This document shows positions 2,041 through 43,560 of a stretch of DNA of 64,000 nucleotides, one piece after another. Location: the NCBI GenBank assembly GCA_020431405.1, contig JAGQIK010000352.1:5316-69315 (forward strand), read 5' to 3'. Each line of letters opens with the position of its first letter. Within the stretch, counting starts at the first letter, position 1. The DNA comes from Myxococcales bacterium (lineage in GTDB: Bacteria; Myxococcota_A; Polyangia; GCA-2747355). Under the pieces are notes generated by a model. That model was not told the origin of the DNA. It searched no databases and saw nothing but the letters and a program-made list of their open reading frames with translations. The translations under genes and the position numbers were made by a program.

Positions 2041-2760
2041 ATGCGCCACTGGTCGTTGTTGCTGTCTGTGCTGGTCCTCGCGCTCGCCGCCTGTGGGTCG
2101 CGCACGCGTGCGGTCGGCGGCGACGCACGCGCGAGCGACGCGCGCGCCAGCGACGCCCCGGGTGCCGACGGCCCGCAGCCAGCGGGCTGCACGAACAACA
2201 CGCAGTGCGCGAGCACGCACTACTGCAAGCTCGACGGCGCCTGCGGCGCGCAGGGCCGCTGCGAGGCGCGGCCCATCACCTGCCCGAGTATTGCGGCGCC
2301 GGTGTGCGGCTGCGACGGCAAGACGCACGGCAACGCGTGCACAGCGGCCGGCGCGGGGGTCAGCGTGCGGCGCGACGGGCGCTGCGAGGTCGCCGGCTGT
2401 GACGCCGTCAAGTGCGGCGTGCTCGACGACTGCTGCACCTGCAGCGCGCTCGACTTTCTCAACAGCAAGGCGCCGCCGCCTTGTCCGGCGCCGTGTTTTC
2501 AGACGGTGTGCGCGGCGCGCGGCATCAAGCCGACGGCCTACTGTCTCGCGGGCAAGTGCCTGCTCGCCGACAGCAAGCCATGCCGCGGCGACGATGACTG
2601 CTTCGCCATCGACGACTGCTGCACATGCATGGCCTGGCCGAGGGATCTGAAGCCGCCGCTGTGCGATCTCACCTGCGCGCAGAGCAGCTGCTCGGCGCTC
2701 GGCCTGAGCGGCGCCAAACCGGCCTGCATCGAGGGCAGCTGCCGTCTTTCGCTGCCTTGA
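2041..2760 (+). CDS. Cys-rich lipoprotein with Kazal-type inhibitor domain
   Basis: Signal/lipobox MRHWSLLLSVLVLALAACGS; Kazal signature CPSIAAPVCGCDGKTHGNACTAAGAGVSVRRDGRCE; repeated DDCCTC motifs. Confidence 0.6.
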   Translation: MRHWSLLLSVLVLALAACGSRTRAVGGDARASDARASDAPGADGPQPAGCTNNTQCASTHYCKLDGACGAQGRCEARPITCPSIAAPVCGCDGKTHGNACTAAGAGVSVRRDGRCEVAGCDAVKCGVLDDCCTCSALDFLNSKAPPPCPAPCFQTVCAARGIKPTAYCLAGKCLLADSKPCRGDDDCFAIDDCCTCMAWPRDLKPPLCDLTCAQSSCSALGLSGAKPACIEGSCRLSLP

Positions 2761-2839
2761 TGGCGTGCAATTTCGGGTGCTTGAGGCGCAGTGGGATTTT
2801 TTCCGTCCACTTCGCGCGGTAGCGCCCACGAAGAAAAAG

Positions 2840-5011
2840 ATGCCCCGGTGTCGACGACAGCGTGGTGTGCGCGCGGCCTTCGGGGCGGCACTGACGCTCG
2901 CAGCAATGCTCGCCAGCGGGTGCAAGCTCGACCGCCCCAGCGCCACATCCGCCGAGCAGAAGCCGTGTCTGGCCTGCCACGAGGCGGATCGCGCGCGCGC
3001 CAAGTTCCCCGATCACCTCGCGACGGGCTATCCGACCAACTGCGAGCAGTGCCACTCGCAGAAGGAATGGAAGCCGGCCGCGTTCGACCACAGCGGCTTA
3101 CCGCTGGTCGGCGGCCACTCCAAGACCGACTGCGCCAGCTGCCACAGCAAAGAGCCGGTGCCCACCAAGTGCGTTGGCTGTCACGCCGAAGATCAGAAGC
3201 GCGGCCCCGGTCACACCGCGGCCGGTTTTAACACCGAGTGCCAGAGCTGCCACACGGTCATCGCGTGGAAGCCCGCCACCGACGTCGATCACAGCAAGTT
3301 CCCGTTCGAGGGCGGACACGCCAACGTGGCCTGCATCTCGTGTCACCCCGATCCGAGCCAGCCGTCCAAGCCCATCGGCACCACCTGCGTCGCCTGCCAC
3401 GAAAAGGACCGCAGCACGCCGAAGAGCCCCGACCATCTCAAGACGGGTTTCCCGACGACCTGCGAGAGCTGCCACACGATCCAGACCTGGAAGTCGGCCA
3501 CCTTCCCGCACTCCAAGCTGGCGCTGGTGGGCAAGCACCGCACGACGGCGTGCGCGAGCTGCCACACCGATCCGTCCAAGCCCGAGACAGCCAAGGGCAC
3601 GACGTGCGCCGAGTGTCACGCCGGCGACCGCCCCCAGGGCGCCACGGCTGATCGCCCCGATCACTTCGACGCGGCGCTGCCGCCCTGCCAGTACTGCCAC
3701 ACGGCCTTCGGCTGGAAGCCGGCGGCCAAGGACCACAGCAAGTTCCCGCTCACCGGCCAGCACGGCGGCGTGGCGTGCAGCACCTGCCACACCGATCCGA
3801 GCAAGCCGGACGTGCCCATCGCCAAGACCTGCGTTGGCTGCCACGAGGCCGATCGCTCGAAGCCGACGTTCCCCGATCACCGCGCCGTCGGCTTCTCCAC
3901 CGACTGCGACAGCTGCCACTCGACCAACGGCTGGAAGCCGGCGACGTTCGATCACGGACTCAAGTTCCCGCTCACCGGCGGCCACTCGGGCGTGACCTGC
4001 GCCAAGTGCCACGCCACCGAGCCGGTGCCCAAGACCTGCGTCGGCTGCCACCAGAACGACATCCCGAGCGGCGCCACCGCCTCGCGTCCCGATCACACGG
4101 CGTCAGGCTTCTCGACCGCGTGCAGCGACTGCCACGGCACGGGCGGCTGGAAGCCGGCGTCGTTCAACCACACCAAGTTCCCGCTGACGCAAGCGCACGC
4201 CGGCCCGGTCTGCACCGACTGCCACACCGATCCGCAAAACCCGTCGGTGCCGACGGGCACCACCTGCGAGCAGTGCCACCTCGGCGATCGTCCGCCGGCA
4301 GGCACCAACCCCGATCATCTCGTCGGCGGCTTCCCGACCACCTGCGAGAGCTGCCACACGCCTACGGTGTGGAAGGGCGCGACGTTCGATCACTCGGTCT
4401 ATCTGCCGCTGACCGGCAAGCACAGCATCGTGACCTGCACGCAGTGTCACAACACGACGCCGATGCCGACCAAGTGCGAGGGCTGCCACACGCCGCCGGC
4501 GACCAACCACACGGCGACGACCAACTGCGACAACTGCCACAGCGTCAACGGCTGGAAGCCGGCCGTCGTCGACCACAGCAAGTTCCCGCTGACGGGCAAG
4601 CACGCCAGCACCGCGTGCACGCAGTGCCACACCAACCCGAGTCAGCCTAGCGTGCCGACCGCGACGACGTGCGTGGGCTGCCACAACAGCGATCGCAGCA
4701 CGCCGACGATCCCGAACCATCTCGCCAATGGCTTCCCGACCGATTGCGCGCAGTGCCACAGCACCAACGGCTGGACGCCGGCGAGCTTCACGCACACCTT
4801 CCCGATCACGTCGGGCAAGCACAAGAACAAGCCCTGCAACAACTGCCACCTCGACCCCAACAACCTCAAGACCTACTCGTGTCTGGGGACCTGCCACGAG
4901 CACTCGCTGAGCAAGATGGACGACAAGCACAAGGGGCGCAGCGGCTACATCTCCGGCGACTTCATGCACTGCACCAACTCGGGCTGTCATCCCAACGGCA
5001 GGACGCCGTAG
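2840..5011 (+). CDS. multiheme c-type cytochrome lipoprotein (about 27 CXXCH plus 2 variant haem motifs, paired-CXXCH repeat architecture)
   Basis: ATG 2840 gives MPRCRRQRGVRAAFGAALTLAAMLASGC lipoprotein signal; about 50-aa repeat units each carrying two CXXCH (CLACH, CEQCH, CASCH, CVGCH ... CNNCH) and DHSKFPLTG spacers; upstream 25 codons of the track ORF are not coding. Confidence 0.8.
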   Translation: MPRCRRQRGVRAAFGAALTLAAMLASGCKLDRPSATSAEQKPCLACHEADRARAKFPDHLATGYPTNCEQCHSQKEWKPAAFDHSGLPLVGGHSKTDCASCHSKEPVPTKCVGCHAEDQKRGPGHTAAGFNTECQSCHTVIAWKPATDVDHSKFPFEGGHANVACISCHPDPSQPSKPIGTTCVACHEKDRSTPKSPDHLKTGFPTTCESCHTIQTWKSATFPHSKLALVGKHRTTACASCHTDPSKPETAKGTTCAECHAGDRPQGATADRPDHFDAALPPCQYCHTAFGWKPAAKDHSKFPLTGQHGGVACSTCHTDPSKPDVPIAKTCVGCHEADRSKPTFPDHRAVGFSTDCDSCHSTNGWKPATFDHGLKFPLTGGHSGVTCAKCHATEPVPKTCVGCHQNDIPSGATASRPDHTASGFSTACSDCHGTGGWKPASFNHTKFPLTQAHAGPVCTDCHTDPQNPSVPTGTTCEQCHLGDRPPAGTNPDHLVGGFPTTCESCHTPTVWKGATFDHSVYLPLTGKHSIVTCTQCHNTTPMPTKCEGCHTPPATNHTATTNCDNCHSVNGWKPAVVDHSKFPLTGKHASTACTQCHTNPSQPSVPTATTCVGCHNSDRSTPTIPNHLANGFPTDCAQCHSTNGWTPASFTHTFPITSGKHKNKPCNNCHLDPNNLKTYSCLGTCHEHSLSKMDDKHKGRSGYISGDFMHCTNSGCHPNGRTP

Positions 5012-19571: not shown

Positions 19572-20546
19572 CTAGCCGAGCGGGGACTGTCCGGCCACGA
19601 CCAGAATCCAGCGCAGCGCGAGGCCGCCGACGAGCAGCAGCACGGGCGCGACGAGCGCGGCCCTGCGCCGGCGCAGCACCTCGATGCTCTCCAGCGCCAG
19701 CGGCACCACCAGGCCGGCGACGACGACCAGCGCCCAGAAGATCGCCGTGAAGCGGCCGCCAAGAAACAGCGCCGCAGCGCGCTGGCCAGCCTGCGCGCCG
19801 CTGACCAGCCCGACGAAAAGCAGCGCCAGCAGCGCCAGCTCGACGCCGATCGCGATCATGTCCCAGTTGCGCAGCAGCGCGTGCTCGCGATGGGTCAGTG
19901 GCAGCAGCATCGTCAGCGCCGCGCCGGTAGAGAAGCCGGAGACGAGAAAAAGGGGGCCCAGCAGCGACGAGCTCCACAGCGCGCGCGCCCCGAGGGCGCC
20001 GAGCAGCACGCCGGTGTAGGCGCCGAGCGCGACGCCAAGCGCGATGTTGGCCCACGTCAACGTGCGCTGGCGCTGCTGGGCCCAGCTGTGTAGGCCTTCG
20101 AGGATGCGGCGCAGCGCGCCGATACGCAGCTTCGCTGCGAGCCAATCACGCTCGCTCTCGGTCGTCTGTGACAGCCCGAAGAGCAGCGTGGCCGGGTAGA
20201 TCGCCAGCAGGATCCAGGCGCCCCACGACATCGGCGAGCTCAGCTGAAACGTCGTGTAGAAGCGCAGCACGTGGCGCTTGAGGTCGAGGTCGAGCAGCAG
20301 CGCGAACATGCCGAGCCACAGCGCGGCCGGCGCGGCGAGGATCATCAGCCGTCCCCAGGGCGAGCGCTGCGACGTCTCACTCGCGTCGGCGCCGCCGTCG
20401 GCGAAGCGGCGCGCCAGCAGCGCCGAGACGATCATCACGCCCGCGGCGAGGCCGCCGAGAAACAGATAGACGGGGATCTCCCAGTGCCACACGGGCTGGC
20501 CCAGCGCGCTCAGTGGGTTGTGATGCACGCGTACGATCTCGTTCAT
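19572..20546 (-). CDS. NrfD/PsrC-family polysulfide-reductase-type integral membrane anchor
   Basis: MNEIVRVHHNPLSALGQPVWHWEIPVYLFLGGLAAG typical NrfD/PsrC N-terminus; about 8 predicted TM segments; last gene of the arsR-psrAB-yeeE-psrC operon. Confidence 0.7.
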   Translation of the reverse strand: MNEIVRVHHNPLSALGQPVWHWEIPVYLFLGGLAAGVMIVSALLARRFADGGADASETSQRSPWGRLMILAAPAALWLGMFALLLDLDLKRHVLRFYTTFQLSSPMSWGAWILLAIYPATLLFGLSQTTESERDWLAAKLRIGALRRILEGLHSWAQQRQRTLTWANIALGVALGAYTGVLLGALGARALWSSSLLGPLFLVSGFSTGAALTMLLPLTHREHALLRNWDMIAIGVELALLALLFVGLVSGAQAGQRAAALFLGGRFTAIFWALVVVAGLVVPLALESIEVLRRRRAALVAPVLLLVGGLALRWILVVAGQSPLG

Positions 20547-20547
20547 G

Positions 20548-21765
20548 TCAGCACCCTCCGCCCTTCTTCTTTTTGCGCTTGGGCGCGTAGCCTTTGATGC
20601 TCGCCGGCGGCGGCGGCGCGGCCTTGCGGCCTGTCATCGCCGCCACCAGCGCGCTGCGAAAAGTCCACTCCGCGCGCGCCGCGGCGTCTGCGCCGGCAGC
20701 CAGCGCGGCCGGTTTGGTCAGCGCGTAGGCCTTCCAGCCGGCAAACCCGCCGCGCAGGCGCAGCACCTTTCCCGGATAGCGCGTCACTGCCGGCGGCAGC
20801 ACGGCCAGATCGCCGGCGCCGACGAGCACCAGATCGCGCTTGCCGGCGGCGTAGGCCAAGCCCAGCGCGCCGAGCTTCGTCTCGGGCACGCACTCGGCGC
20901 CCGGCACGCGGCGTTTGGCGCACGCCGCGGCGTCGCGCAGGTCGAGCACGCGCAGCGTCCACGGCCGGTCGAGCACGCGGCGCGCCAGCTCGGCTTGCGT
21001 GATGCTGCCGAGCCTGGCCGGCGCGGCCTTGGGGCGCTCCGGGGCGGCGAGCGCGACGAGCCCGAGCACGGCGAAGCCGCCGATGCCGCCGAAGATCAGT
21101 CGCCGCGGCCGAGGCGCCCAGTCGACCTCGAGCGCACGGCTCTGGCCGTCGTCGACGACGCCGCCTTCGCGCCGCCGCCGCGCGAGCACGTGCTCGAGCT
21201 TCTCGGCGCCGATGAACATGCCCACCGCCATCAACGCCACCAGCAGCGCCAGCACCGGCGCCGGGATCGAAAACACGTCGTAGAGGAAGAGGTGCCCCAG
21301 CTCGCTCGACTTGTAGAAGTCGCCCACCAGCGGCCACGCCTCGGCGAAGAGCACCGAGCCGATCACCACGCCGCCGATGGTGAACATGCCGTCGATGCTG
21401 CCCGACGCGGCGGCCACCACCGAGGTGCCCGGGCAGTAGCCCGAGATGATGAAGCCCACACCGAGCAGAAAGCCGCCCAGCGCCATCGGCCAGAGCCAAG
21501 TGAAGCTCGCCGTCTGCTCGGCGAGCGGCCTGAGGTCGATCACGCCGGCGCCGTGCGCGATCATCACGCCCAGCATCGCCGTCACGATCGCCGAGAACAT
21601 CACCTTGAAGACGCGCATGTCGGAGCCGTAGAACTGCGCCGCCAGCTTGTCGGCACGGCCGAAGCCCGCGCGCTCGAGCACGAAGCCGAAGCCAAAGCCG
21701 AGCAGCAGCGCCACCAGCAGGCCGAGCTCGCGATGCTCGGCGAGAAACGTTGCTATCGCGCTCAT
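20548..21765 (-). CDS. YeeE/YedE-family sulfur-transport membrane protein (second half-transporter) fused to C-terminal rhodanese-like domain
   Basis: ATG 21763-21765 overlaps upstream TGA (ATGA); ISGYCPGTS motif (YeeE/YedE signature Cys loop); C-terminal LRVLDLRD...DLVLVGAGD...LRGGFAGWK rhodanese-fold pattern lacking the catalytic Cys; 62 upstream codons of the track ORF rejected. Confidence 0.65.
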   Translation of the reverse strand: MSAIATFLAEHRELGLLVALLLGFGFGFVLERAGFGRADKLAAQFYGSDMRVFKVMFSAIVTAMLGVMIAHGAGVIDLRPLAEQTASFTWLWPMALGGFLLGVGFIISGYCPGTSVVAAASGSIDGMFTIGGVVIGSVLFAEAWPLVGDFYKSSELGHLFLYDVFSIPAPVLALLVALMAVGMFIGAEKLEHVLARRRREGGVVDDGQSRALEVDWAPRPRRLIFGGIGGFAVLGLVALAAPERPKAAPARLGSITQAELARRVLDRPWTLRVLDLRDAAACAKRRVPGAECVPETKLGALGLAYAAGKRDLVLVGAGDLAVLPPAVTRYPGKVLRLRGGFAGWKAYALTKPAALAAGADAAARAEWTFRSALVAAMTGRKAAPPPPASIKGYAPKRKKKKGGGC

Positions 21766-22298
21766 CGCCACTGCCTCCTGACGAAGTACGCCATGGCGTA
21801 GCCGCCGGCGAAGACCGCCAGCATGAAGACCCACGAGCCGGCCGACAGCATCGCGCCGCCCGAAAGGGCCTGCCCCGACGTGCAGCCGCGCGCCAGACGC
21901 GCAGCGATGCCCATCACGATGCCGCCGCCCAGCGCCGCAGCGAGCCGCCACGGCACGGAGATGTTCGGCCCACGGACGATCTTCTTCTTCAGCCGTCCCG
22001 CGCTGTAGGCGGCGACGAGGGCGCCGAGCAGCACGCCGAGCACCTCGAAGACGAGCCAGTTGTCGAGCGGGTGGTGCCCGCCCGCCGAGAGCGTCGCCAT
22101 GTGCGGGTTGCTCGCGACGTGCGCCGGCGCCAGCGCCGACAGCGCCGTCACGCCCACGCGGTTGGCCGCGCCCGACGCGCCCAGCCCGTGCGCCGCGACG
22201 AGCAGGGAGGCGAGCAGCACCAGCCCCAGCGCGACGCCGGCGACGTACGGGTTCCAGAAGCGTTCGGCGCGAGCGGTTGTTTCAGCTTGCTCTGGCAT
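21762..22298 (-). CDS. YeeE/YedE-family sulfur-transport membrane protein (first half-transporter)
   Basis: AGGAGGAAAG RBS 8 nt upstream of ATG 22296-22298; ARGCTSG signature Cys loop; 4-5 TM segments. Confidence 0.7.
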   Translation of the reverse strand: MPEQAETTARAERFWNPYVAGVALGLVLLASLLVAAHGLGASGAANRVGVTALSALAPAHVASNPHMATLSAGGHHPLDNWLVFEVLGVLLGALVAAYSAGRLKKKIVRGPNISVPWRLAAALGGGIVMGIAARLARGCTSGQALSGGAMLSAGSWVFMLAVFAGGYAMAYFVRRQWR

Positions 22299-22311
22299 CA
22301 CCGCTTTCCTC

Positions 22312-22872
22312 CTAGGACAAGAAGAACAGGTGCGGCTCGGTGCCCTGCTCCGGTTTGAGGGTTTCGTGCTGGCGGCGCGCCAGCAGCTTGGCCAGCGAGC
22401 TCTCGGGGTCGCCGAGATCGCCGAAGACGAGAGACTCCGTCGGGCAAACCTCGACGCACGCCGGGTCTTTGCCCTTGGCCACGCGATGCATACAGAAGGT
22501 GCACTTGTCGACGTAGCCTTCGGGCCGCACGAAGCGCGCGCCGTAGGGACACGCCGCGATGCACGCCTTGCAGCCGGTGCACTTGTCGGGGTCGACCTGC
22601 ACCGCGCCGCCTTCGCTGTAGAAGCTGGCGCCCGTCGGGCAGTTGCTCACGCACGGCGCGTCGGCGCAGTGCATGCAGCGCGACGAGACGATGCGCTGCT
22701 TGAGGTCGGGGAAGGCGCCGCGGATCTCGATCTCGACCCAGCAGCGGAAGCCGCCCTCGGGCACGTCGTTTTCGGCTTTGCAGGCGAGCACGCACGCGTT
22801 GCAGCCAACACACTTGCGCATATCCATCGCCATCGCGTAGCGCTTCTTGCGTTTGCGGAGGATGGCGCTCAT
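22312..22872 (-). CDS. 4Fe-4S ferredoxin-type electron-transfer subunit (PsrB/PhsB/DmsB family)
   Basis: Four Cys clusters (CVGCNACVLAC, CMHCADAPCVSNCP, CTGCKACIAACP, CTFCMHRVAKG..CVEVCP); ATGA overlap with catalytic-subunit stop. Confidence 0.85.
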   Translation of the reverse strand: MSAILRKRKKRYAMAMDMRKCVGCNACVLACKAENDVPEGGFRCWVEIEIRGAFPDLKQRIVSSRCMHCADAPCVSNCPTGASFYSEGGAVQVDPDKCTGCKACIAACPYGARFVRPEGYVDKCTFCMHRVAKGKDPACVEVCPTESLVFGDLGDPESSLAKLLARRQHETLKPEQGTEPHLFFLS

Positions 22873-25106
22873 GACCGCACCTCCGCCTTGGCGATGCGAA
22901 CGAAGTTGACGTTCATCCCGGTGCCGCCCATCAACGGGTCGACCTTGACGCGCGTCACCAGGTCGCTGTCGCAGGCGCCGCGCCCGCGCGCGAAGCGCAG
23001 GCCGCGCGCGCTATGGCCAAAGCCGTGCACCATGTAGACGCAGTCGCCGCGTATTCGCTCGGTGACGCGCGCCTTGATCGGCGTCGACTTGATGCCGTCC
23101 TGATTGACGAGCACGACTTTGTCGCCCGTGCGCAGCGGCGGGTCTTCGAACCCTGGCAGCGCGCGCGCCGCGGCGCGGTTGATCCAGACCTCGTTCTCGC
23201 TCATCAGCTCGCCGAGCTGACGGTTGTTCGTCGTGCGGCCGAAGGTGTGCATCGGCGCGCGCCCGGTGAGCAGGCGGAACATCCCTTGCGGCGGCTCTTC
23301 GGGTGACGAGGGCTCGGGCATCGGGTGGAAGCCGAGCTTGGCGAGCTGGTCGCTATAGAGCTCGACCTTCTTGCTCGGCGTGTCGAAGCTCGGCGCCGGC
23401 AGGCCGTCATCACGACACGCCGGCACGCGCTTGCCGAGCACCACGCCGTCGCGCGCCAGCGCGGCGAAGTCGATCTTGGCCGCGGCGGCGCGCCGGCGCA
23501 CCACGTCCTCGCTGCTCTGGTAGTTGAACTGCGCGCCGAGCCCGAGGCGCTCGCCGAGCTGCTTGGCGATCCACCAGCCAGGCTTGCTTTCGTACATCGG
23601 CGGCACCACCTGCTGGCGCAGCGCGACGTAGGGCTCCTTGTAGGCCGGCACGTGCAGGTCGTCGGTGCGCTCGAGGTAGGTCGCCTCGGGCAGCACCACA
23701 TCAGCCCAGCCGACGATCTCGGCCGGCAGCACGTCGATGGCGACGAGCAGGTCGAGCTTCTCGATCGCCGCGCGCGTGTGGCGCGGATCGGGCAGCGCCT
23801 GCATCAGGTTGGTGCCGTAGACCATCCAGCCTTTGATCGGATAGGGCTTCGCCGTGACCGTCGCGTCGCACAGCCCGGAGGCGAGCGCCGCGCCGGCGAG
23901 CGGATGTTTGCCCGGCAGGCGGTCGGCGCGCGGGCGATGCGGCTTGCGCGCGGACTTGGGGTACTTGTCGCCCGGCACCTCCATCGACGTGGGCAGCAAG
24001 TAGCCGCCGCGGCGACCCCACGAGCCGAGCAGCGCCGAGAGGATCGCGACCGCGCGGCTTCTCTGCGCGTCGTCGCCGTACCAGGTGGCGCGCCGTCCGG
24101 GATGCACCAGCGAGGCCGGCCGCTGCGAGGCGATGAAGCGCCCCGACTCGCGGATTAGCTGCGGCGCGATGCCGGTGAGCGGGTAGGCCCACTCGGGCGT
24201 CTTGTCTGCGACGTGCGCTTTGAGCTTGTCGAAGCCGACCGTGTGCTTGGCGACGAAGTCAGCGTCGTAGCGCTGCTCGCTGATGATGACGTTCATCCAG
24301 GCGAGCAGCAGCGCGATGTCGGTGCCCGGTTTGATCGGCAGCCAGTACTTGGCCTTGCCCGCGGCGATGGAAAAGCGCGGGTCGACCACCACCAGATCGG
24401 CGCCGCGCTCGATGGCGCGCGCCATGTCCTGCACCTGGGTGTTGTGCGTGTTCTCGCCGAGGTGCGAGCCGATCAGCGTCAGGCAGCGCGTGTTCTCGAT
24501 GTCCACGGGCTCGGGCGAGCCGACGCCTTGGCCGTAGGTCAGCTCGAAGCCGACCTCGCGCGGACCGCGACACTGCGCGTAGGACGGCGCCGCGATGTTG
24601 GGCGAGCCGAAGCTCTTGAAGAGCCGCTTGAACCACGAGCCGCCGAAGCCGTGATAGAAGAGCGCCAGCGCCTCGGGGCCGTGTGCCTTGCGGATGCGCT
24701 CCATGCCTTCGGCGACGCGGTTGAGCGCGGCGTCCCAGGAGACCGGCTCGAAGCGTTGCTCGCCGCGTTTCGAGACGCGCACCAGCGGCTTCTGCAGTCG
24801 GTCGGGATCGTAGAGCAGGCCCGTGCCGCCGGTGCCGCGCGGACACAGACGCCCGCGCGAGAGCGGATGCTTGGGGTTGCCGACGATCTTGGTCACGCGA
24901 CCGTTCTTGACGTGCGCCAGGACGCCGCACTTCCAGAAGCAGAGCTCGCAGAAGGTCGGCACGACGTTGTCGCCGTCTGTGTCGGGTGTGATCCCCGCGC
25001 TCGCCGTCGCGCCCCACCAATCCGAGACGAGACCGCTCGCCAGAGCGGCCGCGCCAAAGCTACCCGCGGTGATCTTGATGAACTGCCTGCGATCGATGGA
25101 GGACAT
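22869..25106 (-). CDS. molybdopterin (Mo-bisPGD) oxidoreductase catalytic subunit, PsrA/PhsA/TtrA/ArrA clade, Tat-exported
   Basis: Tat signal SIDRRQFIKITAGSFGAAALASG; N-terminal FeS motif CELCFWKCGV...(27)..CPRG; 745 aa; followed by FeS and NrfD subunits. Confidence 0.85.
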   Translation of the reverse strand: MSSIDRRQFIKITAGSFGAAALASGLVSDWWGATASAGITPDTDGDNVVPTFCELCFWKCGVLAHVKNGRVTKIVGNPKHPLSRGRLCPRGTGGTGLLYDPDRLQKPLVRVSKRGEQRFEPVSWDAALNRVAEGMERIRKAHGPEALALFYHGFGGSWFKRLFKSFGSPNIAAPSYAQCRGPREVGFELTYGQGVGSPEPVDIENTRCLTLIGSHLGENTHNTQVQDMARAIERGADLVVVDPRFSIAAGKAKYWLPIKPGTDIALLLAWMNVIISEQRYDADFVAKHTVGFDKLKAHVADKTPEWAYPLTGIAPQLIRESGRFIASQRPASLVHPGRRATWYGDDAQRSRAVAILSALLGSWGRRGGYLLPTSMEVPGDKYPKSARKPHRPRADRLPGKHPLAGAALASGLCDATVTAKPYPIKGWMVYGTNLMQALPDPRHTRAAIEKLDLLVAIDVLPAEIVGWADVVLPEATYLERTDDLHVPAYKEPYVALRQQVVPPMYESKPGWWIAKQLGERLGLGAQFNYQSSEDVVRRRAAAAKIDFAALARDGVVLGKRVPACRDDGLPAPSFDTPSKKVELYSDQLAKLGFHPMPEPSSPEEPPQGMFRLLTGRAPMHTFGRTTNNRQLGELMSENEVWINRAAARALPGFEDPPLRTGDKVVLVNQDGIKSTPIKARVTERIRGDCVYMVHGFGHSARGLRFARGRGACDSDLVTRVKVDPLMGGTGMNVNFVRIAKAEVRS

Positions 25107-25133
25107 ATCTAGAACCTTTCGGGAGTGCGCGCG

Positions 25134-38083: not shown

Positions 38084-39169
38084 CTACCTGAGCTTGTGCG
38101 CGATGCGGCCGCTGATCAGCGTGCCGAGCACGCGCGCGCGGCTGAGCTCTTTGCGCAGGCGCAGCGGCAGCGACAGCTGCTCGGGCAGCGAGAGCCACAG
38201 CCGCAGCAGGTGCCGCTTGCGCTCGCTGGCCGGCGCGTCCTCGTAGCCCGTTCGCGCGTGCACGATGGTGTGGTTGGACAGCAACTGGATGTCGCCCGCC
38301 GCGAAGTCCATCTCGAGCGCCGCGCCAGGGGCGTTCATCGCCTCGTCGTAGAAGTCGATCACCGCCTGCGCGCGCTGGTCGATCGGCGGCGCACCGGCGA
38401 GGCGCGCGACGGAGCGGAAATAGCCGATGTGCCAGAACGTGCGCAGCTCGTCGGCGGCGTGCGCGCAGGGCACGATCGGGATGTAGGGCACGCCGCCTTC
38501 GCCCTTGGTGTCCATCAGGAAGGGCTGGTAGAGGCGTTCGACGAGATCGGGGCGCTCGGCGAGCAGCGTGTTGTAGGCGGTGACCGAGCTGGCGATGCGG
38601 CTGCGCCCGCCGCTGGCAGCCGTCTCGAGACACAGCAGGCCGACCACGTCGGCGAGGTCGCAGTGGAAGTCGATGTGCTCGCGCGTGCGGTACTGCCGCA
38701 CGGTGCCGTCGGGCGGCGCGCCGGTGTCGCGTACGTGGCCGAGCAGCTCGCCGGCGGGGTTCTGCGCGCCGGGGATACCGAGGTGAAGGCCGAAGCACCA
38801 GAAGAAGAGCTCGGCGTCTTGCTCGCTCATGCGATCGACGGGGACGCCGCTGACGAGCTGAAAGCCGAGGCCGTGGCGGATGGCGCGGCGATAGCGATCG
38901 ATTTTGCGCGCGAGCGTCGGCAGCGGAAAGTCGCGCTCGCGCAGCTCGCCGGTGGGGCGGCCGAGCGCGCGCGCGTGCCGCACGGCGGCGAGGATTTCGT
39001 CGGCCTCGGCCTCGTCGAGCACGTCGCGATAGCGCGTCGCATCGCCGAGCTCGTCGCCGCGCCAGGCCGCCTCGCAGCGCAGCGGCTGCCGGCGTACGCG
39101 CTCGTGCGGTCGCGCGAAGTAGTGCAGCGACTGCGCGATCTGAGAGCGGTAGCGAGGCAGCGCGATCAT
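38084..39169 (-). CDS. TauD/TfdA-family Fe(II)/2-oxoglutarate-dependent dioxygenase
   Basis: HIDFHCD (HxD) and distal IVHARTG His; about 360 aa; 10-bp gaps to neighbours on the same strand. Confidence 0.65.
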   Translation of the reverse strand: MIALPRYRSQIAQSLHYFARPHERVRRQPLRCEAAWRGDELGDATRYRDVLDEAEADEILAAVRHARALGRPTGELRERDFPLPTLARKIDRYRRAIRHGLGFQLVSGVPVDRMSEQDAELFFWCFGLHLGIPGAQNPAGELLGHVRDTGAPPDGTVRQYRTREHIDFHCDLADVVGLLCLETAASGGRSRIASSVTAYNTLLAERPDLVERLYQPFLMDTKGEGGVPYIPIVPCAHAADELRTFWHIGYFRSVARLAGAPPIDQRAQAVIDFYDEAMNAPGAALEMDFAAGDIQLLSNHTIVHARTGYEDAPASERKRHLLRLWLSLPEQLSLPLRLRKELSRARVLGTLISGRIAHKLR

Positions 39170-39181
39170 CGCGTGGGAATG

Positions 39182-39952
39182 CTAGCGCGGCTTGCCGACG
39201 GGCAACAGCAGCAGCGGGGTGTGCGCGTCGGTAAGCGACAGCAGGCGTCTGAGGCCCGGCTCGTCGAAGGCGCCCACCGGCGTGGCCGAAAGCCCCAGCG
39301 CGGTCGCCATCAGGCAGACGTTCTGCGCCGCGTGGCCGACCTCGATGTGCACGTACTGTTTGGCGCGTGCGCCGTACTTCGCCGCCGTGCGCGCGTAGAG
39401 GCCCGTGACGACGAGCGCGGCGGGCGCGAGCTCGATCCAGCGCTGTTTGACGGCGAGCGTGGCGAGGCGTGCGCGCTGGTCACCGCGCGCCACGCGCTGC
39501 AAGGTGTGCCGCTCTGGGTCATAGCGATACGCGCCGGCCGGCAGCTTGGACACGTGGCCGGCGACGACGTGGAAGGTCAGCGGGTAGAGCGCGCCTGCCG
39601 AAGGCGCGGTGTGCAGCGGCCGGCGCCCCGGAGCGCGGTGCGTGATGCCCTGCGCTGCCCACAGCAGCCGCGCGAGCGCCTCGAGCGAGAGCGGCGTCTT
39701 GTCGTAGCGCCGCCGCGAGCGGCGCCGCTGCAGTAGGTCGGTGAGCACGTCGCGCGCGTTGCTGGAGCTCGGCGCTGTGGGCGTGACGGCGGGCAGCGAG
39801 ATGAGGCGCGGCTTAGAGGCCGCCGTGGTGGGCGGCGTGCGCGTCGGCTTCGGCTCCGCCTCGCCGCGGCAACTGCTCGCGAGCAGGATCACTGACAGCG
39901 TCAGGCTGCTCCACGTCAGTCTGCTCCTCGTCAGTCTGCTCCTCTGGCTCAT
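39182..39952 (-). CDS. SagB-type dehydrogenase / nitroreductase-family lipoprotein
   Basis: AGGAGG RBS before ATG 39950-39952; lipobox LSVILLASSCRGE; YDKTPLSLEALARLLWAAQGIT and PSAGALYP blocks typical of SagB-type nitroreductase fold; 75 upstream codons rejected. Confidence 0.65.
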   Translation of the reverse strand: MSQRSRLTRSRLTWSSLTLSVILLASSCRGEAEPKPTRTPPTTAASKPRLISLPAVTPTAPSSSNARDVLTDLLQRRRSRRRYDKTPLSLEALARLLWAAQGITHRAPGRRPLHTAPSAGALYPLTFHVVAGHVSKLPAGAYRYDPERHTLQRVARGDQRARLATLAVKQRWIELAPAALVVTGLYARTAAKYGARAKQYVHIEVGHAAQNVCLMATALGLSATPVGAFDEPGLRRLLSLTDAHTPLLLLPVGKPR

Positions 39953-40301
39953 CGTCTCGCGCCTCCTGTGCCGCGTTCGACGTCGTATCTGGCGGCAGCG
40001 CGACCGCACGCACGTCAGCCTGGCGTGATCCATCGGGCACCGATTTGACCCGTGTGTCATCGCGACCCGCGCGCCGCTGACGCAGCCGCCGACGCGCGCG
40101 GGCCAGCTGTCGTCGCGCGCGACGCAGCAGCCGCCGCGCCCAGGGAAACTCCGTCGCCAGAAACGCCAACGATGCAACGATCACGAGCGTCCCCGGCCCG
40201 GGGAGCACCAGCATGGCGGCGCCTGCCAGCAGGCCGAGGCCACCTACGACCACGACCAGCACGCGGCGAAGACGCCGACGATATGGTCTGCCGAGCGTCA
40301 C
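39813..40301 (-). CDS. PGPGW-family small transmembrane protein (C-terminal extent uncertain)
   Basis: LVVVVGGLGLLAGAAMLVLPGPGTLVIVASLAFLATEFPW matches the PGPGW motif family; low-complexity tail overlaps the sagB-like start by 140 nt, so true stop or frame of tail doubtful. Confidence 0.45.
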   Translation of the reverse strand: MTLGRPYRRRLRRVLVVVVGGLGLLAGAAMLVLPGPGTLVIVASLAFLATEFPWARRLLRRARRQLARARRRLRQRRAGRDDTRVKSVPDGSRQADVRAVALPPDTTSNAAQEARDDEPEEQTDEEQTDVEQPDAVSDPAREQLPRRGGAEADAHAAHHGGL

Positions 40302-40372: not shown

Positions 40373-41257
40373 CTAGCGCGCGGGGCAGCGCCGGTAGCGC
40401 AGGCGCCGCACGCTGTAGCGCTGCAGGCAGCCCTTGACGCCAAACACCCAGGGCAGCGTCGATCCGCCGCTGCCGGTCGCGCTCGCCGGCGACGCGCTCG
40501 CCGGCGACGCGCTCGCGCCCGCTTTGCGCAGGCAGCGCCAGGCGGCCAGCGTCTTGTCGCGGCCAGGCCCGCGCGAGTAGCCGAAGGTGCTGCGCACGCG
40601 CGTCTGCTCGCAGACGAGCGTCAGGGCGCGCGTCGGCTTGCCGCAGGGCACCTGACGATCGACGAGCTGGGTTTGGGTGCGGCGTCGGCGGCCGCGCCAG
40701 CGTTTGCAGCGGTGCGCCTTGAGCTGCAGCGAGAGCAAGAGTCGCCCGCCGGCGCGCCTGTGCGTGCCGGTCCAGACGGTCGTCCAGCGCAGCCGCTCGC
40801 GCGAGTAGTCGCCGAAGCTCAGGGTCGAGCTGACGCGCTCGCCGCTGTCACGCACCGTGGCGCGCCCGCGCCCGCGCGCGTGCAGGGTCAGCTTGACGGT
40901 GCTGTTGTCGCTGTCGTCGCTGGCGAAGTCGTGCCCGCGGCCGTGGCGATTCTCGTGCGCTCGCACGCGGGCCTCCAGCACGCGCGGCGGTCGCGCCGAG
41001 GCGCTGCTTGTCGACAGCGTCAGCATGGCGAGCAACCCGGCGATGGATTCGCCGCGGACGACAGCTCCGCGGCCGGCGAATCGGCGCATGACGCGATCAG
41101 ACACCGCGCGACCGGCCGCCGTCAAACCCGCTGCACTTGTTGCGAGTCTGTGCGAGCCTGCGGGTATGTCGATGCTCGAAAAGGGAGCCAAGGCTCCAGA
41201 CTTCACGCTTCCCGCGCACGATGGCAGCACCGTCGCGCTCGCCGATCTCGCCGGCAA
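40373..41257 (-). CDS. hypothetical secreted protein (weak)
   Basis: Internal signal-like AGLLAMLTLSTSSASA; Arg-rich; contains 15-nt tandem repeat encoding ASPASASPAS; could be spurious. Confidence 0.3.
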   Translation of the reverse strand: MPARSASATVLPSCAGSVKSGALAPFSSIDIPAGSHRLATSAAGLTAAGRAVSDRVMRRFAGRGAVVRGESIAGLLAMLTLSTSSASARPPRVLEARVRAHENRHGRGHDFASDDSDNSTVKLTLHARGRGRATVRDSGERVSSTLSFGDYSRERLRWTTVWTGTHRRAGGRLLLSLQLKAHRCKRWRGRRRRTQTQLVDRQVPCGKPTRALTLVCEQTRVRSTFGYSRGPGRDKTLAAWRCLRKAGASASPASASPASATGSGGSTLPWVFGVKGCLQRYSVRRLRYRRCPAR

Positions 41258-41639
41258 GCACGTCGTGATCTGGTTCTACCCGGTGGCCGACACCCCTGGC
41301 TGAACGGTCGAGGGCCAAGGATTCCGTGATCGAATCCAAGCGTTCGTAGACCGCAACACCGTCGTGCTCGGCGTCAGCTTCGACAGCGTCGAAGCCAATC
41401 GCGCCTTCGCCGAGAAGTACTGCTTTACCTACCGCCTGCTAAGCGACACGACGAAGGCGATGTGCGTCGCATACGGCGCGGCCGGCGCGCCGCCGCACAA
41501 GTACGCGCAGCGCGTCTCGTACCTGCTCGGCCCCGACGGCACCGTGCTCGAGGCCTACCCCAACGTTTCGCCCGCCACCCACGCTGCTCAGGTGCTCGAG
41601 CATCTCGACGCACATCGAGCGGGCGGCGGCGCCAGCTAG
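41166..41639 (+). CDS. bcp: Bcp/PrxQ-type 1-Cys peroxiredoxin with in-frame TGA (41301-41303) at the peroxidatic-Cys position: candidate selenoprotein
   Basis: Continuous frame through the TGA: ...HVVIWFYPVADTPG-U-TVEGQGFRDRIQAFVDRNTVVLGVSFDSVEANRAFAEKYCFTYRLLSDT... aligns with the Bcp active site YFYPKAMTPGCTVQACGLRD; track splits it into 40857..41303 and 41364..41639. Confidence 0.6.
41319..41337 (+). other. SECIS-like hairpin 15 nt downstream of the in-frame TGA
   Basis: GGAUUC-CGUGAUC-GAAUCC perfect 6-bp stem with 7-nt GU-containing loop. Confidence 0.3.
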
Positions 41640-41902
41640 CGCATCTGGCTGCCCTTGCTGCCGCGCCGGTTGTAGCCGACGGCGATCTGCTGGCGCTTGT
41701 CGGCCTCTTGCTGGCAGCTCACGCACAGCCGCACGCCGGGCACGGCGCGCCGGCGCGCCTCGGGGATCGCTTCGCCGCAGTCGGCGCACTCGCTCAGGCC
41801 AGGGCCGCGCGGCAGGCGGCTTCGGATCTGCCCCACCGCGTCGTCGATGCTGGCATCGATCTGCTCTTGAACCGCCCCATCTCTGGTGAACCCACTCGCC
41901 AT
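41636..41902 (-). CDS. TraR/DksA-family C4-type zinc-finger protein
   Basis: AGGAGA RBS before ATG 41900-41902; CADCGEAIPEARRRAVPGVRLCVSCQQ zinc finger; 88 aa; the 415-aa track ORF is an upstream extension; stop overlaps convergent bcp stop (CTAG). Confidence 0.7.
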   Translation of the reverse strand: MASGFTRDGAVQEQIDASIDDAVGQIRSRLPRGPGLSECADCGEAIPEARRRAVPGVRLCVSCQQEADKRQQIAVGYNRRGSKGSQMR

Positions 41903-41959
41903 GCTTGATCTCCTAGCGCAGGTCGCCGTCTCGAGCAACGCGTAGCGCCCACATCCTCG

Positions 41960-43179: not shown

Positions 43180-43560
43180 TCAGCCGCAGCCGCCGCCGAC
43201 GCAGCTGGTCTTGCACTTGGCGCCGGCTGCGCACTGCTGCTGGCAGTGACCGCCCGCGCAGCTCTGCTTGCAGCGCGCGCCGTTGCCGCACTTCTGCTGG
43301 CAGTATCCGCCGGCGCAGCTGGTCTTGCAGCGCGAGCCGTTGCCGCAGGTCTGCTGGCAGCGACCGCCCGCGCAGGAGAGCTTGCAGCGGCCGCCGGGCG
43401 GGCAGACCTGCTGGCAGCCGCCCTTGGCGCAGTGGCCGCGGTAGTTCTTCAGCGCCGTCGGCTCGCTGGCCGCGTTGACCGTGGCGGGCGAGCTCGAGAT
43501 CAACAGCGCGGCGAGCGCCAGCGCCGAGAGGGCGCAGAGCGTCTTGGTGAGCAGATTCAT
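43180..43560 (-). CDS. small secreted cysteine-rich tandem-repeat protein
   Basis: Signal MNLLTKTLCALSALALAALLISSSPATVNA; about eight tandem 8-9 aa repeats (GGRCQQTCGNGSRCKTSCAGG / YCQQKCGNGARCKQSCAGG / HCQQQCAAGAKCKTSCVGGGC). Confidence 0.65.
   Translation of the reverse strand: MNLLTKTLCALSALALAALLISSSPATVNAASEPTALKNYRGHCAKGGCQQVCPPGGRCKLSCAGGRCQQTCGNGSRCKTSCAGGYCQQKCGNGARCKQSCAGGHCQQQCAAGAKCKTSCVGGGCG

Follow-up and report, generated by a model that had tools for sequence, protein, structure and literature searches.

A stretch of 64,000 nucleotides from an uncultured Myxococcales bacterium (GenBank assembly GCA_020431405.1, contig JAGQIK010000352.1, positions 5,316 to 69,315 of the forward strand; this whole stretch is hereafter called the window) carries on its plus strand, at positions 41166 to 41639, a gene that very probably encodes a selenocysteine (Sec)-containing peroxiredoxin of the PrxQ/BCP type, in which the UGA codon at 41301-41303 is recoded as Sec. 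The evidence consists of the architecture of the gene, of the conservation of both the TGA and the frame downstream of it across many bacterial lineages, and of a covarying hairpin that is specific to the Sec form of the gene. On the basis of the established bacterial Sec pathway and of what is known of peroxiredoxin catalysis, we infer the insertion of Sec in this organism, the binding of SelB, and the chemistry of catalysis and recycling. The organism would then probably make the full-length selenoenzyme, which would imply that an uncultured Myxococcales bacterium decodes Sec and needs selenium. An initial annotation of the window, made from the sequence, had already proposed a Bcp-type peroxiredoxin whose peroxidatic Cys is replaced by Sec, and this proposal is supported by the recurrence of the TGA, by the conserved frame, and by the Sec-specific hairpin described below.

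Gene architecture and the predicted enzyme

The reading frame opens with an ATG at 41166, proceeds through 45 codons that end in ...WFYPVADTPG, meets the TGA, and continues for 111 further codons to a TAG at 41637-41639, for a total of 157 residues. A further ATG in the same frame, at 41172, coincides with the start of most homologs (MLxxG), and the true start may be this one instead of that at 41166. Mechanical calling of open reading frames (ORFs) breaks the gene in two, at 40857..41303 and 41364..41639, and these limits, together with the positions that the initial annotation had given for the ATG, the TGA, the TAG and the hairpin, were all verified on the sequence. The G+C content of third codon positions (GC3) in the frame of the gene amounts to 0.82 ahead of the TGA and to 0.83 past it, as compared to values of 0.70 and 0.48 for the two remaining frames, and the fact that GC3 is unbroken across the TGA and lower in the other frames indicates that the frame is coding beyond what would be expected by chance.

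Public records hold only portions of this gene. The source GenBank entry, traced by a cluster look-up and by sequence, covers positions 41334..41639 of the plus strand with a 101-residue ‘peroxiredoxin’ (MCA9668679.1) that begins MQAFVDRN..., takes as its start the ATC codon of Ile57 (41334), which is non-standard, and is devoid of the entire active site. In two metagenome assemblies deposited in ENA the gene is split into two ORFs, and a 91-residue database fragment derived from these two assemblies matches the downstream ORF with full identity from end to end. The suggestion that the gene had been missed by ORF calling is borne out by these entries, and the public annotation of the peroxiredoxin in the source genome, with its 101 residues and no active site, is wrong.

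The read-through product, searched with a Cys substituted at the stop, matches the Pfam AhpC-TSA family (PF00578) over residues 7-128 with E=1e-31, and its residues 1-149 align to positions 1-154 of the 156 positions of the NCBIfam Bcp equivalog profile, an end-to-end alignment that agrees with the 157-residue, Bcp-like product proposed at the outset. The two best-scoring NCBIfam families are the Bcp equivalog NF006960 and the PrxQ model NF053650, despite scores that lie under their cut-offs (107.6 versus 140 bits and 100.5 versus 260 bits, respectively), while all 15 of the solved structures matched at E<=1e-10 are of the BCP/PrxQ type (E=2e-22 to 6e-13). The window protein is best described, from its sequence, as a diverged member of PrxQ/BCP, a subfamily call that is founded on these best hits and on the structure matches.

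The position of the TGA within this fold was examined by aligning the window product to 11 Cys homologs of full length. The stop codon lines up exactly with the Cys of the ADTPGC motif, as had been claimed for the peroxidatic Cys, and this placement, along with the recurrence of the codon in other genomes, designates it as the probable position of Sec46 (U46). Thirteen columns of the alignment are invariant, all of them 3' of the TGA, and every one is kept in the window product; they include Arg116 (codon 41511..41513), which aligns with the Arg of BCP structures and corresponds to the conserved catalytic Arg. The active-site motif P39-V-A-D-T43-P-G-U46, read from positions 41280..41303 and formed of nearly invariant columns, follows the pattern PxxxTxxC/U, which has been described for Sec-containing peroxiredoxins (Sec-Prx; PMC13188914). 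The assignment of the full-length coding sequence to 41166..41639 is consequently supported by its translation, by the Pfam match, by the homolog alignment and by the structure matches. One detail of the initial annotation requires correction, in that the resolving Cys had been described as replaced by Gly: the residue at +5, the position of the resolving Cys50 in E. coli Bcp, is Gln51, and it is Gly50 that occupies +4. The alternative resolving position in helix alpha-3, aligned to Cys84 of the Xanthomonas protein, is occupied by Ala82, and the window protein also contains Cys86 and Cys100, neither of which is conserved in the family.

In the mechanism that we propose, a stem-loop in the mRNA, whose apical hairpin (41319-41337) presents a G-U in its loop at 21 nt from the UGA, would recruit SelB with Sec-tRNA(Sec), and the ribosome would read the UGA as Sec46 and go on to complete the 157-residue enzyme. 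Sec46 would act as the peroxidatic residue in a P-x-x-x-T-x-x-U pocket shared with Thr43 and Arg116, where peroxide would be reduced via a selenenic acid. Recycling is probably 1-Cys-like, performed directly by a thioredoxin- or glutaredoxin-type reductant, since neither of the known resolving positions (Gln51 and Ala82) is a Cys. It could be speculated that Cys86, located one helical turn after the alpha-3 position, serves as a lineage-specific resolving partner.

Recurrence of the TGA and the probable selenocysteine insertion sequence

The TGA is found, identical, in two ENA metagenome contigs that come from other samples and that carry one synonymous difference from the window; the presence of the same TGA in two independent assemblies indicates that it is not an assembly error. 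To place the codon in a wider setting, species-representative genomes were scanned for the pattern F-[YF]-P-x-A-D-T-P-G followed by TGA, which yielded at least 120 exact matches where approximately one would be expected by chance (as calculated at 60% GC). Among the matches listed, 115 loci continue in frame for at least 95 conserved codons after the TGA, mostly for 100-114 codons, and their source genomes are spread over Acidobacteriota, Thermoanaerobaculia, Binatia, Rokubacteriota, Planctomycetota, Chloroflexota and further groups. Seven or more carry a Myxococcota label, encompassing Kofleriaceae, Polyangia, Myxococcus, Archangium, Anaeromyxobacter, and metagenome-assembled genomes (MAGs) labelled Myxococcales or Myxococcota. 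Compared at the Cys codon, the orthologs do not present the picture of a shared truncation lacking downstream conservation, but rather that of a TGA that recurs together with a conserved downstream frame. The Cys form of the pattern gave no matches in viral contigs.

A few of the loci retrieved merit separate mention. In a Rokubacteria MAG contig (CAVZOE010000001.1), the similarity of a TGA-bearing PrxQ gene ends approximately 30 codons past the TGA while an Arg-rich frame continues, which suggests that this copy is frameshifted, being either a pseudogene or the product of an indel error in assembly. Four other PrxQ genes with the TGA are of a kind typical of Binatia, Acidobacteriota or Myxococcota and come from MAGs that bear the labels Klebsiella pneumoniae, Patescibacteria group, Rickettsiales and Clostridia. 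These labels look like cases of mis-binning or mislabelling.

In the window, the TGA is followed after 15 nt by a hairpin (41319..41337, plus strand) with a 6-bp stem, GGAUUC/GAAUCC, that closes a 7-nt loop, CGUGAUC. It forms the apical portion of a candidate selenocysteine insertion sequence (SECIS), and lower stems (CGGUC/GACCG and GGGCC/G.GUUC), which are a prediction on the window sequence alone, would extend the element to 41305..41353 with a minimum free energy (MFE) of -18.4 kcal/mol overall. The published model of the bacterial SECIS (bSECIS), as implemented in bSECISearch, calls for a loop of 3-9 nt, an upper stem of 4-16 bp, a spacing of 16-37 nt, a G within the first two loop positions followed by a U, and an MFE for the whole element of at most -7.5 kcal/mol (PMC13188914). 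The window element agrees with this description, with a loop of 7 nt that starts C-G-U, a stem of 6 bp, a spacing of 21 nt from the UGA to the loop, and the folding energy given above; it departs from the consensus in that the N1-N2 closing pair, an optional feature of the common loop pattern, is not formed. The codons from which the hairpin is built are rare in relative use, and they cluster within it (GGA 3.5%, CGT 6.8%, CGA 4.1%, GAT 18%, CAA 11%). The perfect, SECIS-like hairpin noticed initially hence has a geometry that fits the published bSECIS, and it also belongs to a class that recurs, covaries, and is specific to the Sec genes, as detailed in the following paragraphs.

The comparative evidence was gathered from the TGA loci and from a control of 120 metagenome loci that carry the same motif with a Cys codon (TGY) at the site. 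When the gene is followed along its entire length in the 115 TGA loci, stability is highest in 42-nt segments that begin between -9 and +9 relative to the TGA. Hairpins of bSECIS geometry with a contiguous stem of at least 6 bp are present in 86 of 114 TGA genes versus 30 of 109 TGY genes (p=5e-13), and the difference persists in genes matched for the downstream motif x-[TS]-x-E-x-x-x-F-R-D (66/91 versus 5/35, p=3e-9). The MFE of the region +4..+48 follows the same trend, with -14.7 kcal/mol for TGA genes and -9.9 kcal/mol for TGY genes.

The hairpins of the TGA genes occupy two registers. Type A displays a GUU triloop that starts 17 nt after the UGA, and is found in 54 loci at a stem of at least 6 bp and in 68 at a stem of at least 5 bp. 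Type B, to which the window hairpin belongs, has its loop start at 21 nt, and comprises 15 loci with a 7-nt loop, or 22 if loops of 5-8 nt are included; a loop that starts at 21 nt and measures 7 nt constitutes the second most common hairpin class in the family. The CGUGAUC loop hardly varies among type B members, while the two arms change jointly (GGAUUC/GAAUCC, GGGCUUC/GAAGCCC, GGGCUC/GAGCCC and UUGAAUUC/GAAUUCAA), and loci close to type B with 6-nt loops provide an additional arm pair, GCGAUUUC/GAAAUCGC. The 19-nt hairpin of type B members is on average 91% identical to that of the window, as opposed to 67% and 56% for the flanks, and five loci from other lineages carry a hairpin identical to it.

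Further support for a conserved RNA structure comes from the 14 type B members other than the window, in which 90% of the cells are paired, five of eight pairs show double-sided changes, the covariation score is reached by none of 500 shuffles, and the true register outperforms every slid register. Since the type B set was picked by the presence of a stem, the percentage of paired cells is partly circular, a restriction that applies neither to the outer two pairs nor to the diversity of pair types. A covariance model built from these 14 sequences, and hence free of the window, recognizes positions 41301-41348 with 60.8 bits (E=4.7e-16) as its only strong match in the 64 kb; a sequence-only model gives 47.8 bits for the same element, so that base pairing contributes approximately 13 bits. 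A single gapless alignment of all 115 TGA loci yielded no consensus with RNAalifold (0.0 kcal/mol), and imposing the window's register on all TGA sequences resulted in low pairing, both of which are explained by the use of at least two registers in the family. A test on 20 sequences selected by their loop gave only modest support (70.8% paired, 2 of 500 shuffles), in a set that mixes in members of the other register and 6- or 8-nt loops.

Type A loci offer two observations of their own. Their stem (GGUUGCGG-GUU-CCGCGACC) includes the codon of the +5 residue; 31 of the 68 loci encode Cys there, 26 encode Arg and 8 encode Ser, and the change from UGC (Cys) to UCC (Ser) is accompanied by a change of the pairing Arg codon from CGC to CGG; judged from the codons, this would be a compensatory change that ties a residue of the catalytic site to the RNA stem. 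In addition, a Cys-codon (TGT) homolog on metagenome contig Ga0209488_10040736 carries an 8-bp type A hairpin, GGUCGCGG-GUU-CCGCGACC, directly after the codon, and may represent a recent conversion of Sec to Cys with a fossil SECIS. No Sec-to-Cys events were recorded for Prx in a 2006 survey (PMC1794560).

Proposed selenocysteine decoding and competing explanations

A number of results weigh against the recoding of this UGA as Sec. The window contains none of selA, selB, selD or the gene for tRNA-Sec: Pfam scans of 38 window ORFs revealed no SelA, SelB or SelD, and no tRNA and no Rfam family were detected in the window. A second selenoprotein gene is also absent from the window. This very gene is available in three nearly identical copies, too alike to allow selection within the lineage to be measured, and the closest TGA-bearing relatives of the window protein, among the matches listed, are only ~59% identical to it. 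Regarding the hairpin, its apical portion is weak by itself (-5.2 kcal/mol), the local fold of 41295-41360 is not significant in relation to shuffled sequence (z=-0.76), and the local MFE is no better than that of synonymous recodings. These last points reflect the fact that stability alone cannot identify a SECIS element in a genome of 70% GC, where significance comes from the comparative data.

Beyond the window, no tRNA-Sec was found in 60 related loci, and a tblastn search of 1.6 Mb of related loci with an E. coli SelD query returned no matches. A survey of the window for other in-frame TGA read-through candidates gave three matches, all of which were antisense frames of real genes and were rejected. 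The architecture of the gene, considered together with its relatives, suggests that the source organism decodes Sec. One of these relatives, Anaeromyxobacter, is documented to use Sec and possesses three Sec-peroxiredoxins (PMC1794560).

The absence of Sec machinery and of any other selenoprotein gene from the 64 kb is what would be expected if the gene were a fossil, belonging to a lineage that lost, or never had, Sec decoding, in which the TGA would terminate translation of a young pseudogene; bacteria, moreover, commonly lose both the Sec trait and selenoprotein genes (PMC1794560). No decay of the gene is visible, however: the 111-codon frame is intact, GC3 is unchanged, the invariant residues are kept, the TGA is retained in three assemblies, and the SECIS hairpin is perfect even though it requires rare codons. 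The arrangement is also maintained in no fewer than seven other genomes of Myxococcota, among them that of Anaeromyxobacter, the Sec user mentioned above, and we consider a fossil gene unlikely. Even less credit can be given to a simple nonsense mutation (TGC or TGT to TGA), or to an error of sequencing or assembly, in a Cys-type Bcp gene that happens to be followed by a hairpin. A single base change does suffice to turn a Cys codon into TGA, and 4.3% of synonymous recodings of the same peptide produce a stem of at least 6 bp where the SECIS would sit; however, three independent assemblies carry the same TGA, and the hairpin is the type B element common to TGA orthologs (91% identity versus 56-67% in the flanks), recognized at 60.8 bits by a model built without the window, while such hairpins are rare in Cys-codon homologs. 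This explanation is the least probable of those considered.

A further possibility is that the UGA is read by other means, be it as Trp or Cys by a near-cognate tRNA or through a reassigned code, or that the downstream ORF is expressed by itself, as the GenBank annotation of the downstream 101 codons as a protein would have it. The stop codons of the window speak to the first variant: high-GC3 ORFs end in TAG in 26 of 39 cases, in TGA in 13 and in TAA in none, and because TGA ends approximately one third of them it is a normal stop codon here, which argues against its reassignment. Trp or Gly at the peroxidatic position would, in addition, be inactive, and the Sec-specific hairpin would be left without a role. 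As for the second variant, the annotated fragment has no active site and requires the non-standard ATC start. Both are very improbable. It is of note that TGA is usually the dominant stop codon at approximately 70% GC, and that the majority of TAG among the stops of the window looks unusual for such a composition.

Related selenoproteins and genomic surroundings

Recoding of the UGA as Sec, with the resulting peroxiredoxin, would place the window gene among established selenoproteins. Peroxiredoxin (Prx; PF00578, TxxU) is listed among those of bacteria (PMC13188914), and the 2006 survey of Zhang et al. counted 12 Sec-Prx members and five Cys-to-Sec events (PMC1794560); that Sec-peroxiredoxins were already known, as the initial annotation had remarked, is thus well documented. 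Like the proposed selenoprotein of the window, members of the bacterial Sec-Prx (TxxU) family combine the AhpC/TSA fold with Sec at the peroxidatic position, have Cys homologs, and carry a bSECIS directly after the UGA, and they occur in Deltaproteobacteria and Myxococcota, as in the case of the three copies of Anaeromyxobacter. Nothing essential differs between the two; the window copy is diverged, being at most 59% identical to any other TGA copy retrieved, and its source record does not describe it as a selenoprotein. With PrxQ/BCP proteins, such as E. coli Bcp, Xanthomonas campestris BCP (3GKK/5IIZ) and Sulfolobus solfataricus Bcp1 (3DRN), the window protein shares a full-length alignment, the PxxxTxxC pocket and the catalytic Arg, but it differs from them by the Sec expected in place of the peroxidatic Cys and by the lack of a Cys at either resolving position. 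Other Sec-containing members of the same superfamily are PrxU (NF040737), an experimentally characterised Sec-peroxiredoxin, and the thiol peroxidase Prx-SUH (NF045827); the window protein is neither of these, with scores of 36 bits against a cut-off of 270 for PrxU and of 17.5 against 298 for Prx-SUH, and belongs to a different subfamily.

The window gene falls within the published definition of the Sec-Prx family and is of a known kind, so that the finding is mainly a correction of annotation and leaves the current understanding of selenoproteins unchanged. A search of the available literature library found no paper that treats the BCP/PrxQ subtype separately as a selenoprotein. The occurrence of this codon arrangement in at least 120 species-level genomes indicates the extent to which standard gene callers split or truncate Sec-peroxiredoxins, which biases censuses of selenoproteomes, and the matched sets of TGA and TGY genes provide a clean natural experiment on the form that a bacterial SECIS takes alongside a conserved peptide motif. 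A broader proposal can be put forward tentatively, and is in our view rather doubtful: in phyla of soil and sediment (Acidobacteriota, Thermoanaerobaculia, Binatia, Rokubacteriota, Planctomycetota, Myxococcota), few selenoproteins could be as widespread as Sec-PrxQ, with its two alternative SECIS architectures embedded in the same conserved G-F-R-D codons. If this were true, the evolution of the SECIS class would be coupled to that of the redox mechanism (Sec-Cys versus 1-Sec), and most of the Sec-PrxQ family would be hidden from public protein databases by systematic mis-annotation.

The peroxiredoxin gene shares its end with a convergent gene for a DksA/TraR-type zinc-finger protein (41636-41920, minus strand; PF01258, E=9e-15), the TAG codons of the two overlapping in the palindrome CTAG at 41636-41639. 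The nearest upstream genes lie on the opposite strand, and encode a nitroreductase-family protein (39182-40180) and a TauD/TfdA-family dioxygenase (38084-39181). No obvious redox partner, be it a thioredoxin, a glutaredoxin or AhpD, adjoins the peroxiredoxin among these neighbours. At a greater distance, the window encodes a multi-haem cytochrome c7/c3 protein (2708-5011, plus strand) and a molybdopterin oxidoreductase with an NrfD-type membrane subunit (19572-25133, minus strand), and since the latter has no in-frame TGA it is not a Sec-type formate dehydrogenase. Finally, a putative ORF of 126 codons at 43180-43560 (minus strand), with no match in Pfam, would encode a signal-peptide-like N-terminus followed by approximately ten Cys-rich repeats (C-x-G-G-x-C-x-Q-x-C-x-x-G-x-x-C-K-x-S).

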